A DNA stretch of 59,399 nt, filler included. It is 3 parts of 3 records of this genome, joined end to end, with 100 filler letters (N's around TTAATTAATTAA, not from the genome) between each part and the next. Parts side by side here need not be neighbours in the genome. Positions count along the whole stretch, not along the records: positions 25,739 to 43,571 come from DRR723986_8511; 2 more parts are not named here. One strand, written 5' to 3'. Numbering within the stretch: position 1 is the stretch's first letter; each line of letters begins with the position of its first letter. The position numbers and the translations under genes were made by a program. Shown here piece by piece: positions 25,639 to 43,671 of this stretch. Below the pieces are notes generated by a model that searched no databases, was not told the DNA's origin, and worked only from the letters and a program-made list of their open reading frames with translations.

Positions 25639-25738
25639 NNNNNNNNNNNNNNNNNNNNNNNNNNNNNNNNNNNNNNNNNNNNTTAATTAATTAANNNNNN
25701 NNNNNNNNNNNNNNNNNNNNNNNNNNNNNNNNNNNNNN
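25639..25738. other. Artificial contig spacer
   Basis: N44-TTAATTAATTAA-N44 (stops in all six frames). Confidence 0.99.
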
Positions 25739-31599: not shown

Positions 31600-31867
31600 C
31601 GGTTTGGGCGCCTTTCTCTGGAAATAGTTGTTTTCCATTGTTTATGAGTTCGTTGCAGGAAATCAAGTCGCAGCTGTGTAATGGTGATGGATGAAACGAA
31701 GCTTGCGCATGAGACGGGGTTAACCTCAAGCGATGTCACCGGGCAAATGGGATAAGGGAGGTGCAAAAACAGCCCTGAATACTTCAAGCATAAAACATCT
31801 TGACGGAAGGTCGGGTTTCTAGAATGTCTTGAGTCGTAATCTGTGTGCGAACAGGGGGAGAGCAAGC

Positions 31868-33091
31868 ATGTCATGGCCATCCAATTCTGGTGTTTCCGAC
31901 GAACAACGACAGGACTGGAAGGACCGGTTTGCCGAAAGCGATGCGGCGGCGGGGATTGAGGTTACGGAGGATTTCGAGCCGTTCAAGCAGCGCAATGACA
32001 TGTTCACGCGGGCGTTCTGGGATGAGAGCGTGCGCAGCAAGCAGACGGATGCGTTTTTCTCGAGCTATCGGATGAAGGCGAGCTATCGCAAAGGCGATGG
32101 GTTCCGGCAAAAGGATTTCGCGCTGCGCAATGCGAGCTGGTTGATTTCGGACATCATCAGCAACCGGGGCGGGGATAGTGGCAAGCGCGAGGGGTTTCAG
32201 GCTCCGATTGATAATGACACGCCGGTGGCCGAGGCGCGGGTTGAGATTGACGATCCTAAGTTGATGAGCGCTGAAGTGAAGCGCATTGCCAAGTTCTTTG
32301 GCGCGGATCTGGCGGGGATCACGGCGATGGACGAGCGGTGGCTGTATTCATCGCGGGTGGATACACGGGATTTCTCGGAGGCGGAAAACGAACTGCCTGA
32401 GGGGATGACCAGTGTCATCGTTTTGGGCCATCAGATGGATAAAGAGCTGGTGGCGACGTACCCATCGGCCTTGGCCGGGGCGGCGACGGGGCGCGAGTAT
32501 TCCCATGAGGCGGCGATCATCATGCAGTTGGCGGCCTATATCCGCAATCTGGGGTATGAGGCGGTGGCATCGATGAATGACACCGGCTTGGTCATTCCCT
32601 ATGCGATCAAGGCGGGGTTGGGGGAATATGCCCGCAACCAGCTGGTGATCACGCCGGAGTATGGGCCGCGACTGCGGTTTTCCAAGATTTTCACCAACCT
32701 GCCGCTGGATCATGATCTACCGGCCAAGCTGGGTGTCGAAGAGTTCTGTAACATCTGCACCCAATGTGCGGATGCTTGTCCGGCCAAGGCGTTGCCGTTT
32801 GGCGAAAAGACGGTGAGCGAGGGGGATGCGGCCTCGGCCATCAAGGGGGTGCGCAAGTGGACCTCGGATGCGAAGGCGTGTTTTGGCTATTGGGCCAAGC
32901 TGCAGTCGGATTGTGCGATCTGCATGCGGGTGTGTCCGTTTAACCGAGAGTTTGATACGTGGCAGAACAAGCTGTGGCTCAAGGTGGCGTTGTCGCGGTG
33001 GCGCGAGTGGGCGCTGTGGTGGGACAAGCGCAGCAAACGTGCGGACCGGCTGAAGCCCAAGGAGTGGTGGGGTGGATCGCCCGAGGCCTGA
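31868..33091 (+). CDS. Reductive dehalogenase (RdhA-family cobalamin / 2x[4Fe-4S] protein), no TAT signal
   Basis: KFFGADLAGI, Y...LAAYIRNLGYEA, AGLGEYARNQLVITPEYGPRLR, CxxCxxCxxxCP and C-x10-CxxCxxxCP. Confidence 0.88.
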   Translation: MSWPSNSGVSDEQRQDWKDRFAESDAAAGIEVTEDFEPFKQRNDMFTRAFWDESVRSKQTDAFFSSYRMKASYRKGDGFRQKDFALRNASWLISDIISNRGGDSGKREGFQAPIDNDTPVAEARVEIDDPKLMSAEVKRIAKFFGADLAGITAMDERWLYSSRVDTRDFSEAENELPEGMTSVIVLGHQMDKELVATYPSALAGAATGREYSHEAAIIMQLAAYIRNLGYEAVASMNDTGLVIPYAIKAGLGEYARNQLVITPEYGPRLRFSKIFTNLPLDHDLPAKLGVEEFCNICTQCADACPAKALPFGEKTVSEGDAASAIKGVRKWTSDAKACFGYWAKLQSDCAICMRVCPFNREFDTWQNKLWLKVALSRWREWALWWDKRSKRADRLKPKEWWGGSPEA

Positions 33092-33948: not shown

Positions 33949-35121
33949 TTAGGGGACCGCGACGATGTTGAGCGGGGTGTCAGCCAGAGCCTTTCCACCT
34001 GTTGGGGTTACAACAAAGCTTTCGGTGATGGCGACGCCCCAATCTGGTGTCCACAGGCCGGGCATTAAATGGAAGGTCATACCGGTTTCCAGGCGGGTGG
34101 TGTCGCCGGGGCGCAGGCTCATGGTGCGCTCGCCCCAATCGGGGGGATAGCTGAGGCCGATGGGATAGCCGGTGCGGTTGGCTTTGACGTAACCCGCGCG
34201 GGAAAAGCTGTCGTAGACGCAGGTTGCGATCTCTTCACAGGTGACACCGGGGCGGGCGGCGGCGAGCGTGTCGGAGATCGCGGTCAGCACCGCCTCTTCG
34301 GCGCGGCGGATGTCGGCGGGGACCTCGCCCAAGAACAGCGTGCGGCTGACGGGGCAATGGTAGCGGTGGAAACAGCCGGAGACCTCGAAATAAGTTGCCT
34401 CGCCCCGTGTCAGGGGGCGGTCGTTCCATGTGATGTGCGAGGCGGAGGCCTCGAGCCCCGAGGGGGCGATGGGGGCAATAGCGGGGTAATCGCCCGCCAG
34501 TCCGGGCAGACCGGCAATGCCTGCGGCCTGGACCTCGGCGACGAGTTCGTTTTTGGGGCGGCCTTCGCGGAAACCGTCGCGCAACACAGCATGCATATGG
34601 GCGGTCAGGCGCCCGGCTTTGCGCATCATCTCAAGCTCAGTCTCGCTTTTGACGGCGCGTTGCCAGTTCACAAGCCCGGTGGCATCGGCAATGGCGGTGC
34701 GCCCAAAGGCGGTTTCCAGAATGCGGTGGGCGGCGGCAGAGTAATAGTAGTTGTCCATCTCAACCCCCAGCGCGCCGGTCCAGTCGTGATCCTGCAACAA
34801 GGTGACGAGGGCGTCATAGGGGTGGTGATCTGGGTGCTGGACGTGCTCTTCGGGCCAGTCGAACAGGTTTTCCACGCCGATCCATGTGGTTTGTGCAGCG
34901 CCTGCCTTGTCCTGTGTGCGGCCCCACCAGAGCGGTGTGCCCTCAGACGGGACGATGACCACTTGGGGGACATAAAAGCTCCAGCCGTCATAGCCGGTGA
35001 GCCATGCCATGTTCGAGGGGTCGGCGACGATCAGGGTTTCGATCCCTTGCGAGGCCATGGCCGCGCGGGTTTTGGTCAGGCGCTGGGCGTATTCTTGGGG
35101 CGTAAAATCGGATGCAGGCAC
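33949..35121 (-). CDS. M24 (pita-bread) family amidohydrolase, ectoine hydrolase EutD/DoeA-like
   Basis: DPSNMAWLTGYDGWSFY, LVNWQRAVKS, SHITW, RYHCP, RTGYPIGLSYPPDWGE and ITES; GTG start after GAGGA. Confidence 0.85.
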   Translation of the reverse strand: MPASDFTPQEYAQRLTKTRAAMASQGIETLIVADPSNMAWLTGYDGWSFYVPQVVIVPSEGTPLWWGRTQDKAGAAQTTWIGVENLFDWPEEHVQHPDHHPYDALVTLLQDHDWTGALGVEMDNYYYSAAAHRILETAFGRTAIADATGLVNWQRAVKSETELEMMRKAGRLTAHMHAVLRDGFREGRPKNELVAEVQAAGIAGLPGLAGDYPAIAPIAPSGLEASASHITWNDRPLTRGEATYFEVSGCFHRYHCPVSRTLFLGEVPADIRRAEEAVLTAISDTLAAARPGVTCEEIATCVYDSFSRAGYVKANRTGYPIGLSYPPDWGERTMSLRPGDTTRLETGMTFHLMPGLWTPDWGVAITESFVVTPTGGKALADTPLNIVAVP

Positions 35122-35305
35122 TTTTGCCCCTTTCTCTTCCTCTGGCGGGATGGCTCCCGCATTTTGGGGTCAGGCAATGTTTAAACGGAAGCGCTGTCTA
35201 GTCTGAAAGCGAAACCATCGGGTCGGTGTTGGTTTTTTGCAAGAGAAAGAGACGGTCTAGAGAGAGCGGGTCAGGATCAGCCGGATCGTTTGGACCGGAT
35301 GATTT

Positions 35306-35335
35306 AATGGCGGCGACGCGGACAAAATCACCGTT
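35306..35335. repeat. 30-bp dyad site A (GACAAA core type)
   Basis: AATGGCGGC-GACGCGGACAAA-ATCACCGTT; 20/30 identical to site C. Confidence 0.6.
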
Positions 35336-35487
35336 GCCGAAATTGCTCATTTCATTTTTGTGGCCAAAAGGAGTTGGCTTTTGACGGCTTACCACGCCAA
35401 GCGATGCGCAACATAAACCTTGCTATGAGATCACTCTATGGACAATGCTCTGTTCGTACTGGTTGTTCACAGAATAAAGGAAAACCG

Positions 35488-35847
35488 ATGTCAGCGACAC
35501 TTTTTGATCGCCTTGGCGGTACGAAGGGCATTTCCAAAATCGCCTCCGATCTTGTCGATAATCACATGGCCAACCCCCTTATTTCTTCTCGGTTCGCTGG
35601 CAGCGATGCCGATAGTATGAAAAAGAAAGCAGCAGATTTCTTTTCTACGGGGTCCGGGGGGCCGCAAGTCTACGATGGAAAGGACATGTTGAGTGCCCAC
35701 AAACACATGAATATTTCTGACAATGAATATATGGCAGCCGTAGACGACTTGATGGCGGCACTTTCAAATTCCGGTGTGGGCGACGCAGAAAAAGCGGAAG
35801 TGCTCTTTATCTTTTACACACTTCGTCCGGAAATTGTTGGCGTATAG
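35488..35847 (+). CDS. Group I truncated hemoglobin (2/2 globin), atypical distal pocket
   Basis: TLFDRLGG, GSGGPQVYDGKDMLSAH (proximal His) and MNISDNEY motifs; AAGGA RBS. Confidence 0.9.
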   Translation: MSATLFDRLGGTKGISKIASDLVDNHMANPLISSRFAGSDADSMKKKAADFFSTGSGGPQVYDGKDMLSAHKHMNISDNEYMAAVDDLMAALSNSGVGDAEKAEVLFIFYTLRPEIVGV

Positions 35848-35848
35848 C

Positions 35849-35878
35849 ATAGTCTGCATTGGGCTCAAAGCCGCCGTT
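35849..35878. repeat. 30-bp dyad site B (GGCTCRAA core type)
   Basis: ATAGTCTGC-ATTGGGCTCAAA-GCCGCCGTT, 1 bp after the globin stop; 16/30 identical to site E. Confidence 0.55.
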
Positions 35879-35919
35879 CGCCGCGCCACCTCACCGGATC
35901 GGCACTCAGACCTGAGGTC

Positions 35920-35949
35920 AAGGGCGGTGGAACCGACAAAACGGACGTT
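35920..35949. repeat. 30-bp dyad site C (GACAAA core type)
   Basis: AAGGGCGGT-GGAACCGACAAA-ACGGACGTT. Confidence 0.6.
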
Positions 35950-36029
35950 GGCGTCTGTAGCTACGCGTTCAAGTCAAATTCGTGGGCTTGCGATCCAATC
36001 TGGGCGGACATTGCAACATACCGCCAATC

Positions 36030-36545
36030 TTATTTGTCCTCGCGATCTTCCATCCTGGCAATTAGAAACTGCCGAATTCCAAACAATAGCAAAAGAGGGA
36101 TTCCGATTTCGGAAAATCTCCCAGCGTTCACTGTAAACGTCCAAACGATAGATAGAAAACTCACGCCAAGCAATAATAACGAATACCGAATGACTTGTTT
36201 ACGGTGTTTGTTGGGAGCGCCGAGAAATCCATGTTTCGTAAACGCGGTCATCACGCATCCAGTTAGAAATATGGCAACTAGAACAAATGATTGAGCGTTG
36301 GCAATCAGCATGTCCGCCCAAGCATTCATGTCCAGAAAAACGAGAATTTCAATACTCGGCGTTATCAACAGCATATATATGTTGATTCCCAGTAATATGG
36401 CGTGTGGCTTGATTGTTCGGGTTATGTAGGCCGTACAAACGGCTGCGGCAAATATGGTACCAGACCATCCTGCAAGTCTTAGATCACCGACCCAGTGAAG
36501 GAGACCGAGAAAAAAGATTGAAGGCGTATTCTCGAACAATGCCAT
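36030..36545 (-). CDS. AT-rich hypothetical multi-pass membrane protein
   Basis: About 6 hydrophobic segments; visibly lower GC than flanking genes; start at ATG 36545. Confidence 0.7.
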   Translation of the reverse strand: MALFENTPSIFFLGLLHWVGDLRLAGWSGTIFAAAVCTAYITRTIKPHAILLGINIYMLLITPSIEILVFLDMNAWADMLIANAQSFVLVAIFLTGCVMTAFTKHGFLGAPNKHRKQVIRYSLLLLGVSFLSIVWTFTVNAGRFSEIGIPLLLLFGIRQFLIARMEDREDK

Positions 36546-36625
36546 CAATAAGGAACGCTGGCGAAAAGTGATCAACAGTATTTCTCCCGGAAGAGTTGCT
36601 GTAATAACGCGCCGGGAAGCCAATT

Positions 36626-36655
36626 AAAGTCAAGGAAAGGCTCGAACTGGGCATT
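36626..36655. repeat. 30-bp dyad site E (GGCTCRAA core type)
   Basis: AAAGTCAAG-GAAAGGCTCGAA-CTGGGCATT. Confidence 0.5.
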
Positions 36656-36779
36656 GAATTGCTGCGCTCTTCGCTTCCTCTTTTTCGCGCGCGGGTTCGA
36701 ACTCTTTGGGTGCCTAACTCGCTCTGCCGTCCGAAAAAAGAGTCCAAATCCAGCGGCAGATCTACCCTGTCAAATACCC

Positions 36780-36808
36780 AAAACAGAGCCAACGGTGGGC
36801 GTTGGCTC
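36780..36808 (-). terminator. Intrinsic terminator of the MBL hydrolase gene
   Basis: GAGCCAACG-N5-CGTTGGCTC followed by TGTTTT on the minus strand. Confidence 0.6.
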
Positions 36809-36834
36809 CGGGCTCGGGTGCATGGGGGGGAGAC

Positions 36835-37527
36835 TCAGAGTGTGATGGCCTTCATCACCTCGGGTTCGATCACGTCTACCTCGGGCAGGGCGTCGATCAT
36901 CACTTGTGCGGACTGTTCCAAAATCGGGAAGGTTTTGTAGTGGCAGGGGATCACTGTTTTGAAGTTGAAATAGCGTTTTGCCGCGTAGGCTGCGCCCTTC
37001 ATATCCATGGTGAAATGGCCCCCGGCGGAGAGAATGCCGATGTCGGGTTTGTAGTAGTCGCCCATCCAGTCCATGTCGGCCATGATGTCGGTATCACCCG
37101 AGACGTAGAGCGTTTTGCCCTCGGATTGAATCATGAAGCCGACCTCGGTTCCGCCCGTGCGAATGCCGTCTGGGGTGTTGAAGGTCGAGGAGTGTGAGGC
37201 CGCGACCATCGACACGTGGACCCCGTTTAGGTCAACGGTGCCGCCCTTGTTGAAACCAACGGTGTCGACGCCTTCGGTTTCGCCCCAATAGCCCATCAGA
37301 TCGTATTGGCCGACCAGCGGCACGTTCAGGCGTTTGGCCAGCGCAAGCACGTCGATCACGTGATCAAAATGGCCGTGGGTCAGCAGGATATGGGTGGCGC
37401 CCGAAATGGCGGCGTCATGCTGATCTTCGGGGAGGGAGGGGTTGCCGGTCAGCCAAGGGTCGATGAGCAGAACCTGTCCTGCAGTTTCGATGCGAAAGCT
37501 GCCGTGACCGAGCCAGATGATGTCCAT
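36835..37527 (-). CDS. UPF0173 metal-dependent hydrolase (metallo-beta-lactamase fold)
   Basis: WLGHGSF, IDPWL, THGHFDH, HSS, SGDT and PCHY motifs. Confidence 0.92.
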   Translation of the reverse strand: MDIIWLGHGSFRIETAGQVLLIDPWLTGNPSLPEDQHDAAISGATHILLTHGHFDHVIDVLALAKRLNVPLVGQYDLMGYWGETEGVDTVGFNKGGTVDLNGVHVSMVAASHSSTFNTPDGIRTGGTEVGFMIQSEGKTLYVSGDTDIMADMDWMGDYYKPDIGILSAGGHFTMDMKGAAYAAKRYFNFKTVIPCHYKTFPILEQSAQVMIDALPEVDVIEPEVMKAITL

Positions 37528-43571: not shown

Positions 43572-43671
43572 NNNNNNNNNNNNNNNNNNNNNNNNNNNNN
43601 NNNNNNNNNNNNNNNTTAATTAATTAANNNNNNNNNNNNNNNNNNNNNNNNNNNNNNNNNNNNNNNNNNNN
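43572..43671. other. Artificial contig spacer
   Basis: N44-TTAATTAATTAA-N44. Confidence 0.99.

Follow-up and report, generated by a model that had tools for sequence, protein, structure and literature searches.

Several bacterial systems are known in which accessory genes or variable segments lie among short repeated sites. In integrons, attC sites of ~60-130 nt, imperfectly palindromic and present also in attC clusters that lack an integrase, lie between accessory genes; the sites are co-oriented, bracket single-gene units and hold the unit boundaries, and their R''/R' boxes follow the consensus RYYYAAC ... GTTRRRY. In the pdif modules of Acinetobacter plasmids (XerC/XerD), accessory modules are bounded by short conserved sites, alternating 28-bp dyads with two 11-bp arms and a 6-bp spacer, while in the neisserial intergenic mosaic elements (NIME) dRS3 repeats flank variable RS segments, with minimal mobile elements also known from this group. 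Repetitive extragenic palindromes (REP) and bacterial interspersed mosaic elements (BIME) are short imperfect palindromes that form mosaics in intergenic DNA, often past gene 3' ends, and are paired with REP-associated tyrosine transposases (RAYT). Here we describe a further repeat, the linker, found in an AT-rich insert of a DNA stretch of 59,399 nt, filler included (the window), and in other genomes of the Rhodobacteraceae. Of four short sites proposed earlier within the insert, three (A, B and C) are not recombinase dyads but represent units of a 21-nt motif, S; they belong to the linker family, which elsewhere forms co-oriented arrays separating accessory modules, and of this descriptive part we are highly confident.

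The linkers work most like integron cassette arrays or neisserial mosaics, yet they depart from what defines integrons, pdif modules and the REP/RAYT system. With attC arrays and integron cassettes they share the layout given above, the co-orientation of the sites, the bracketed single-gene units and unit boundaries inside the site. However, the linker core TGGGCTCAAAGCCGCCGTTCGC has no RYYYAAC/GTTRRRY boxes at the element ends, the integron integrase IntI is over the cut-off in none of five genomes, and no attI-integrase platform was seen. Moreover, the linkers form several arrays per genome, also on plasmids, with modules of up to eight genes in either orientation, and whereas an integron open reading frame (ORF) is co-oriented with its site, 45 intergenic linkers have an upstream gene of like orientation in 29 cases and of opposite orientation in 16 (crude ORF calls). 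Alphaproteobacteria are reported to lack integrons. The likeness to the neisserial elements is one of form, namely a ~20-nt unit at short variable spacing (46 or 60 nt) in mosaics beside exchangeable genes; sequence and phylum differ, linker arrays extend over kilobases with genes between the units, and no prophage or IS110-type enzyme is tied to the S unit. REP and BIME elements are similarly short, imperfectly palindromic, mosaic and intergenic, but the linkers are set apart by a low copy number (0-25), co-orientation over kilobases and the lack of Y1_Tnp in all five genomes. Finally, pdif sites likewise bound accessory modules on plasmids and chromosomes, but S units are 21 nt long, barely symmetric and co-oriented. 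The accessible part of the literature on repeats, cassettes and islands of roseobacters and other Rhodobacteraceae yielded no description of the linker repeat.

The insert (35122-36834, 1.7 kb) lies between the gene of a metallo-beta-lactamase (MBL)-fold hydrolase and a doeA-like gene, and holds two cargo genes, for a truncated haemoglobin (the globin) and for a small membrane protein. A preliminary description had seen in it four 30-bp dyads, A at 35306, B at 35849, C at 35920 and E at 36626, together with a lone arm at 36004-36012. Its letters and positions are correct, as are the 41 bp between B and C and the start of B 1 bp past the globin stop (TAG, 35845-35847), while the elements themselves are drawn differently here:

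35304..35350, + strand: partial decayed linker (site A), in which AATGGCGGC, resembling an inverted arm, precedes an S2 unit (35317-35337)
35837..35949, + strand: complete linker (B, 41 bp and C), with an S1 unit at 35860-35880 (TGGGCTCAAAGCCGCCGTTCG) and an S2 unit at 35931-35951
36626..36655, no strand assigned: site E of the preliminary description, unsupported

As read from an alignment of 45 copies, a linker is a mosaic element of ~50-130 nt, composed of an upstream box (GCAGCAT...GTCCGC), an S1 unit (TGGGCTC-AAAGCCGCCGTTCG) with ~24 nt behind it, an inverted copy of the S tail (CGAAyGrCnGC) or a variant middle, and an S2 unit (GCGGAC-AAAGCGGTCATTCG); TTGGGCTCAAAGCCGCCGTTCGC is conserved as its core. 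S1 and S2 represent two forms of a single 21-nt unit, TGsGswC-AAAGCsGyCrTTCG, with TGGGCTC or GCGGAC as head and AAAGCsGyCrTTCG as tail, spaced at 46 nt inside elements and at 60 nt in tandem runs, and such tandem 60-nt units are found at contig ends. The two alternating core types of the preliminary description are indeed real and correspond to the two heads, GACAAA of A and C to the S2 head GCGGAC and GGCTCAAA of B to the S1 head TGGGCTC, and the right arm of its consensus, RCNGMCRTT, is the S tail. B and C are on the other hand not separate sites. Four loci are colinear with the window linker, L101 with 87% identity over 35858-35940, L102 with 79% over 35861-35946, and also L103 and L104, and because of these long matches B, the 41 bp and C are one element, of which B and C form the two ends (~100 nt, colinear in L101 and L102 over 35858-35946). 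The middle part of the window copy and of L101-L104 differs from that of other linkers. Taken together, B and C make up a complete linker, A corresponds to the 3' portion of a decayed copy, and E is a chance resemblance.

Models independent of the window agree with this assignment. Matrices were built from copies in other genomes only (S1, n=41; S2, n=17) and run over 118,278 window positions on both strands. The S1 matrix ranks B (35860) first with 36.1 bits, the next match reaching 6.1, and the S2 matrix, the seed for which was picked after A and C had been seen, ranks A (35317) first with 15.3 bits and C (35931) second with 13.8, followed by a match at 13.7. The chance of the best S2 match in the 59-kb window landing in the 366 nt 5' of the globin on the right strand is ~0.003. 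Site E (36637), by comparison, is at rank 111 of the S1 matrix with -4.2 bits, and ~0.5 such matches are expected in 520 local positions. An nhmmer profile of 44 linker copies, with the window copy excluded, recovered 35837-35921 at E=6e-13 in the window-wide search and nothing else below E=0.1 on the + strand, while the seed-free search of the island recovered A (35304-35350, E=0.047) at profile positions 94-133, which are the inverted arm and S2. Site E gave no nhmmer match at E<=50, nor did the proposed lone arm GCGGACATT within the island; the latter sits in DNA that is read through in P0004, a relative of the membrane protein. From the matrix ranks and the nhmmer results, A, B and C are thus units of the family and E is not.

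The family is widespread in marine Rhodobacteraceae. A DNA search with 35840-35965 gave matches in 83 of 401 Rhodobacteraceae genomes at E<=0.01, often near contig ends, four of them long and colinear. Counted against a reversed-pattern control, the strict core pattern TGGGCTCNNNGCNNCCGTTCGC occurs 40 versus 2 times in G097 with 2 mismatches and 123 versus 16 times in 201 family genomes with 1 mismatch, and a slightly looser pattern 38 versus 4 times in G366 with 1 mismatch. By the strict pattern a genome holds 0-25 copies, with at least one in 51 of the 201 genomes and none in 150; the richest are G097 (25), G194 (10) and G018, G019 and G128 (7 each), and G001, the closest relative of the window, has a single copy. 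The linkers of the window's species are probably relics.

Where linkers are frequent, they are arranged in arrays. Of neighboring pairs no more than 15 kb apart, 18 of 20 in G097 and all 12 in G366 have the same orientation, as counted from coordinates, with one head-to-head pair seen as a profile match in L146. This is opposed to the alternating site orientation of pdif modules, with which the sites of the window had been compared, and congruent with the forecast of a repeat family clustered in variable regions of other genomes. Between the linkers lie one to eight accessory genes in either orientation, on chromosomes as well as on conjugative plasmids, from families such as EamA, PLP decarboxylase, hydrolases, GNAT, thioesterase, LysR, MFS, sulfotransferase and dimethylsulfoniopropionate (DMSP) lyase. 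Adenylate/guanylate cyclase fusions are in marked excess in G366, with Guanylate_cyc in 11 of 54 proteins of its array contigs. The G366 arrays (L180-L186 and L157; contigs C98-C126) encode cyclases fused to TPR, alpha/beta hydrolase, GFA, lectin, AAA_16 and GAF domains, as well as Trans_reg_C proteins, and many of these contigs start or stop at a linker. By crude ORF calls, 63 distinct copies divide into 45 intergenic ones, 12 inside ORF calls and 6 at locus edges, and the 45 classifiable intergenic copies into 15 tandem, 14 convergent, 9 tandem-opposite and 7 divergent; with all four classes occupied, the linker has no fixed relation to gene direction.

One plasmid case is the conjugative plasmid NZ_CP136707.1 of Tritonibacter scottomollicae, where three co-oriented copies lie ~700 nt apart, two of them tightly bracketing a ClbS/DfsB gene and the third placed immediately 5' of a GNAT gene. 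All three full copies (E<=1e-9) share one orientation, with weaker partial matches on both strands. An IS110-family transposase gene of this plasmid (L193, 9093-10557) adjoins partial, inverted linker copies; IS110 relatives are known to target palindromic repeats. No close copy of the ClbS/GNAT array was found on other plasmids, though a further linker copy is present on a Phaeobacter inhibens plasmid. The two plasmid records list no feature under the linker, and the gene tables of PLSDB hold protein-coding genes only. Accretion in tandem at a tRNA attachment site was also considered and is unsupported, since neither the window nor the surroundings of the arrays hold a tRNA or tmRNA, save one unrelated tRNA-Thr in L160.

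Three sets of junctions are compatible with exchange at or beside S heads. G366 and its relative G406 have, within 10.5 kb, only a 1.9-kb segment in common (90% identity), which holds one cyclase-TPR gene, has linkers on both sides in both genomes and lies between different neighbours. On the element strand the shared part starts with GGACAAAGC (S2 head and tail) and ends with GTCTGCnnTGGGCTC (S1 head), and the tails beyond differ. Four loci of G097 have an identical linker body from GGGCTC to GCGGAC, outside of which the sequences are unlike.

Contigs of four metagenome runs of four studies (X1-X4) were also compared with the window. For example in X1 (35048-36966) and X2 (35018-36876), ~98%-identical contigs span the whole insert in place, with no joints seen, and the stretch ~35854-35925 recurs in other metagenome contigs with unlike sequence on both sides. 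Run X4 holds, alongside a near-identical strain, related contigs that are ~89-92% identical to the window. One of these (298 nt, depth 40) matches 35110-35313 with 22 differences and continues with 94 nt unlike the window, and its first letters past the match restore a consensus-like ...GCGGA, so that the break lies inside A, after the S2 head. Another (488 nt, depth 30.5) begins with 231 unlike nt, followed by 35860-36116 with 27 differences, the break falling at the left edge of the S1 head. Additional X4 contigs of like depth and identity cover parts of the membrane-protein gene (36087-36302, 36384-36587) and of the MBL gene (36834-37100); 35344-35861 and 36602-36823 are uncovered by the ~90% contigs, and this missing cover was not used as evidence. 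We infer that a single related organism in X4 would carry the flanks, the membrane-protein gene and the B-C linker while lacking the globin segment of the window. Breakpoints inside the sites, as anticipated in the preliminary description, are hence seen for the G366/G406 pair and at A and the core of B in X4. Globins recur beside linkers elsewhere as well: among loci L001-L100 there are only two profile matches (E<=0.01), both beside globin homologues (L092 and L093), and G366 has a 55%-identical globin between two co-oriented linkers 567 nt apart.

Collectively, we favor, with moderate confidence, a reading in which the linkers of this family of co-oriented arrays are joints at which accessory modules are swapped, with the globin segment as one such module. 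A module would begin at the tail of an S unit and extend to the head of the following one; the segment with the globin, between A and B (~35323-35859), would then be one module, and the membrane-protein gene with the B-C linker its neighbor. Exchange could take place by a site-specific enzyme acting at the junction of S head and tail, or by homologous recombination, as a double crossover between linkers of incoming and resident DNA.

Several observations weigh against this reading. The left junction with ancestral DNA (~35228) lies ~75 nt outside A and no unit marks the right end, so that a linker event at this junction did not bring in the entire insert, and only the globin segment behaves as a module at the window locus. 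Only their depth (40 and 30.5) and a similar degree of divergence assign the two diverging X4 contigs to one organism. In X1, X2 and X3 the window-like contigs have an 8-bp deletion at 35869, in the S1 tail, and the window-like strain of X4 has a C>A change at 35323, in the GGAC of A; with the S1 tail deleted in three of four strains and A altered, the linkers are without constraint in situ. In G366 the globin points the opposite way relative to its linkers as compared with the window. Only a single clean inter-genome module pair was found, no close relative of G097 for array comparison is among 25 genomes searched, and since the heads are conserved in all copies, breakpoints can be placed only to within the linker. 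As for enzymes, Y1_Tnp (RAYT, PF01797) is missing from the five genomes by a search that was positive in 6 of 14 known genomes as control, and the integron integrase profile TIGR02249 has no match over its cut-off in five genomes, three of them linker-rich. Large serine recombinase homologues number at least five each in G097 and G194 and two to three in G018, with a fragment in G019 and none in G128, all linker-rich; among linker-poor genomes G005 and G010 have one each, and G063, G009 and G012 none at that level. The counts track those of the linkers loosely, as a trend only, with G128 having 7 linkers and no large serine recombinase. One large serine recombinase with a DUF2924 partner lies inside a G366 array; none of the G097 copies adjoins an inspected array. 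The single co-occurring recombinase family that had been predicted has accordingly no convincing candidate.

If the favored reading holds, linker-punctuated arrays would offer a concrete handle on the shuffling of small gene sets in roseobacters, major marine bacteria with very fluid accessory genomes; the modules seen include globins, cyclase fusions, GNATs, hydrolases and transporters. In practical terms, the truncated-haemoglobin gene of the window could then be annotated as a horizontally acquired module flanked by linker relics.

It is possible, although we deem it unlikely, that the linkers are passive intergenic mosaic repeats of the type of REP/BIME, the Rhizobium-specific intergenic mosaic elements (RIME) or the neisserial NIME, with no part in gene movement, and that their position at module boundaries merely reflects the intergenic DNA of variable regions. 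The occurrence of copies in every intergenic class would fit such repeats, as would the tandem 60-nt units at contig ends, the free decay of the window copy among strains and the failure to find a dedicated enzyme (Y1_Tnp, integron integrase) in five genomes. So would the pairing of the arms: S tail and inverted arm pair in 79.6% of cells, versus 23-50% when slid, with no covariation beyond shuffles. What passive repeats leave unexplained is the co-orientation of neighbors in 30 of 32 pairs while the genes between them are not co-oriented, the one-gene module of G366/G406 with linkers at both ends, and the identical linker bodies at four G097 loci with their sharp GGGCTC and GCGGAC edges.

A more specific form of the exchange reading, in which the S unit is the crossover site of a dedicated, non-integron module-exchange system of Rhodobacteraceae, we consider doubtful. 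Modules would here be excised as circles with one S unit, module head joined to tail, and integrate at any resident S unit, giving rise to co-oriented arrays on chromosomes and conjugative plasmids, with the large serine recombinase/DUF2924 pairs or the IS110-type genes near some arrays as candidate enzymes. In a softer form the linkers may serve as portable homology, DNA delivered by a gene transfer agent or conjugation replacing modules by double crossover. Of the cassette-like, non-integron system of the preliminary description, the cassette-like part survives in part, and the tyrosine-recombinase dyads do not.

Less probable still is a regulatory or RNA element, such as a terminator, UTR element, small RNA or protein-binding site, that belongs to certain paralogous genes (those for adenylate cyclase fusions and Trans_reg_C proteins) and is duplicated together with them. 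The excess of Guanylate_cyc in the G366 arrays, together with its presence in the G366/G406 module, would be in line with this, and about half of the G366 copies, when read on the opposite strand, precede a gene start by 10-160 nt, while 29 of the 45 copies come after a co-oriented gene, at its 3' end. Orientation relative to the genes is however inconsistent, the flanked genes come from many unrelated families, and there is no covariation. Rfam 15 has nothing near gathering score for 35000-37000 at E<=10 and, for four linker-rich loci, only RNase P and a tRNA away from the linkers. The folding of 35840-36035 is unremarkable on either strand (z = -1.1 and +1.1), and RNAalifold gives a hairpin lacking covariation support for five window-type copies and only a 3-bp stem for 18 G097-type copies.

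The site anatomy of the preliminary description, four 30-bp dyads with asymmetric 12-bp cores as substrates of a tyrosine recombinase encoded elsewhere with pdif-like alternation, is largely refuted, and we rate this model as very improbable. Around the globin there is indeed an alternation of two motif types, with GACAAA in A and C and GGCTCAAA in B, and breakpoints do fall in A and at B. The 9-bp arms, nevertheless, are complementary at 5, 5, 6 and 6 of 9 positions, which is chance level, as at least 5 of 9 is reached by 5.44% of 59,112 window 30-mers and by 98 of 1,684 within the insert; the only symmetry of the S unit is a GGC...GCC mini-dyad. Pairwise likeness of the four sites (14-20 of 30) is also unexceptional, the insert having 4 direct pairs at 20/30 and 337 at 17/30. 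The consensus of the preliminary description does match the window more often than expected, 12 times with up to 2 mismatches versus 3.6 +/- 2.3 in 30 shuffles, for which the filler stretches of 44 nt each (25639-25682, 25695-25738, 43572-43615 and 43628-43671; two pairs with 12-nt gaps) were removed. Six of the 12 are, though, A, B and C on both strands, from which the consensus was made, and the other six equal expectation. B and C are parts of one colinear element, E is a non-member, the array linkers are co-oriented, and a dif-like layout was not seen. Finally, we give next to no credence to pure chance for all four sites, which by the criteria of the preliminary description are at chance level, as this is already refuted for B and C by the 36 bits of B on a matrix from other genomes and its homologous copies in 83 of 401 genomes, A and C moreover being the two best S2 matches in the window.

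The remaining features of the locus are the flanks, the cargo genes and the non-coding parts of the insert:

33949..35121, - strand: left flank, DoeA-type M24 peptidase (ectoine hydrolase; Pfam Peptidase_M24 at 4e-35, also Creatinase_N)
35193..35227, no strand assigned: SnoaL-cyclase gene, possible 3'-end remnant (30/35 nt shared with the last such gene of L001, 7878-7912; E=0.001 in the set of 80 loci)
35488..35847, + strand: group I truncated haemoglobin gene, 119 aa (PF01152, 2e-10, residues 4-111)
36030..36575, - strand: small multi-pass membrane protein, 181 aa from TTG at 36575, open frame to 36623 (11 homologues)
36656..36834, no strand assigned: right-hand part of the insert, non-coding; a hairpin resembling a terminator (36784-36810, - strand) comes just past the MBL stop
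36835..37527, - strand: right flank, MBL-fold hydrolase (Lactamase_B_2, 6e-18; 74-87% identity in 10 relatives)

The name doeA is the annotation carried by plasmid homologues of the left-flank peptidase. With this peptidase 80 loci were fetched, 10 of which carry both flank genes. In eight of these 10 relatives (Ruegeria, Shimia and related taxa) the MBL stop abuts the peptidase start, in one a gap of 73 bp separates the two genes, and in L001 (Tropicibacter, the closest relative, 87% identity) 3.9 kb of cyclase genes lie between them. Neither the globin nor the membrane-protein gene is present in any of the 80 loci, the 10 with both flanks included. As the flanks abut in most relatives and the cargo is absent, 35122-36834 represents an insert, placed at a junction that varies within this lineage, and the cargo is accessory DNA, as had been supposed. 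Within 401 family genomes the globin (at E<=1e-20) is found in 11 and the membrane protein in 5, and no genome has both. The earlier observation that the cargo genes are more AT-rich than the flanks is likewise borne out (GC 0.43-0.51 versus 0.58-0.68). In L001 (4095-7985), four tandem, slightly overlapping SnoaL_3 plus Guanylate_cyc paralogues of 323-328 aa are located exactly at the insert junction of the window. Judged from the sequence of the short possible remnant, there is weak evidence to suggest that the insert may have replaced SnoaL-cyclase genes like those of L001.

The globin has 102 homologues, those with 56-76% identity carrying the NCBI name group I truncated hemoglobin, and the Bac_globin domain extends over its full length of ~119 aa. 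The membrane protein has no Pfam match; its closest homologue, at 96% identity, begins at the residue that corresponds to 36575, and nothing was found in metagenome collections scanned with the protein alone or as an alignment. At its end the protein is ~23 residues shorter than 204-aa homologues, while P0004, an 81%-identical JGI relative, reads through into DNA matching 35974-36025, and thus the 3' end of this gene has moved recently.

No homology to 36656..36834 was detected in relatives, and a promoter and terminator scan of 35000-37000 gave no more than shuffle level. Within this part, near-identical metagenome strains differ far more at 36716-36830 than elsewhere in the insert, with ~20 substitutions and several indels in the window-like contigs of X1, X2 and X4.

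Further observations concern the G097 arrays and the wider window. P27-type small terminase paralogues and a VapE-like primase are located beside linker arrays of G097 (L146 8335-8856, L147 1676-2005, L148 18-1382), and there are hints that some linker arrays are cargo regions of satellite-like or prophage-derived islands. A different repeat of ~213 nt is present at L147 7959-8173 (G097:C1) and at least 10 other places of G097, with 85-89% identity; it covers two 83-aa ORFs that have no Pfam match, and some copies lie 729 nt from contig ends. In the window itself, an ORF at 31829-33091 encodes a reductive-dehalogenase-like region (Dehalogenase, 1e-4, below the Pfam cut-off) and 4Fe-4S double-cluster domains (Fer4_16, 4e-10).

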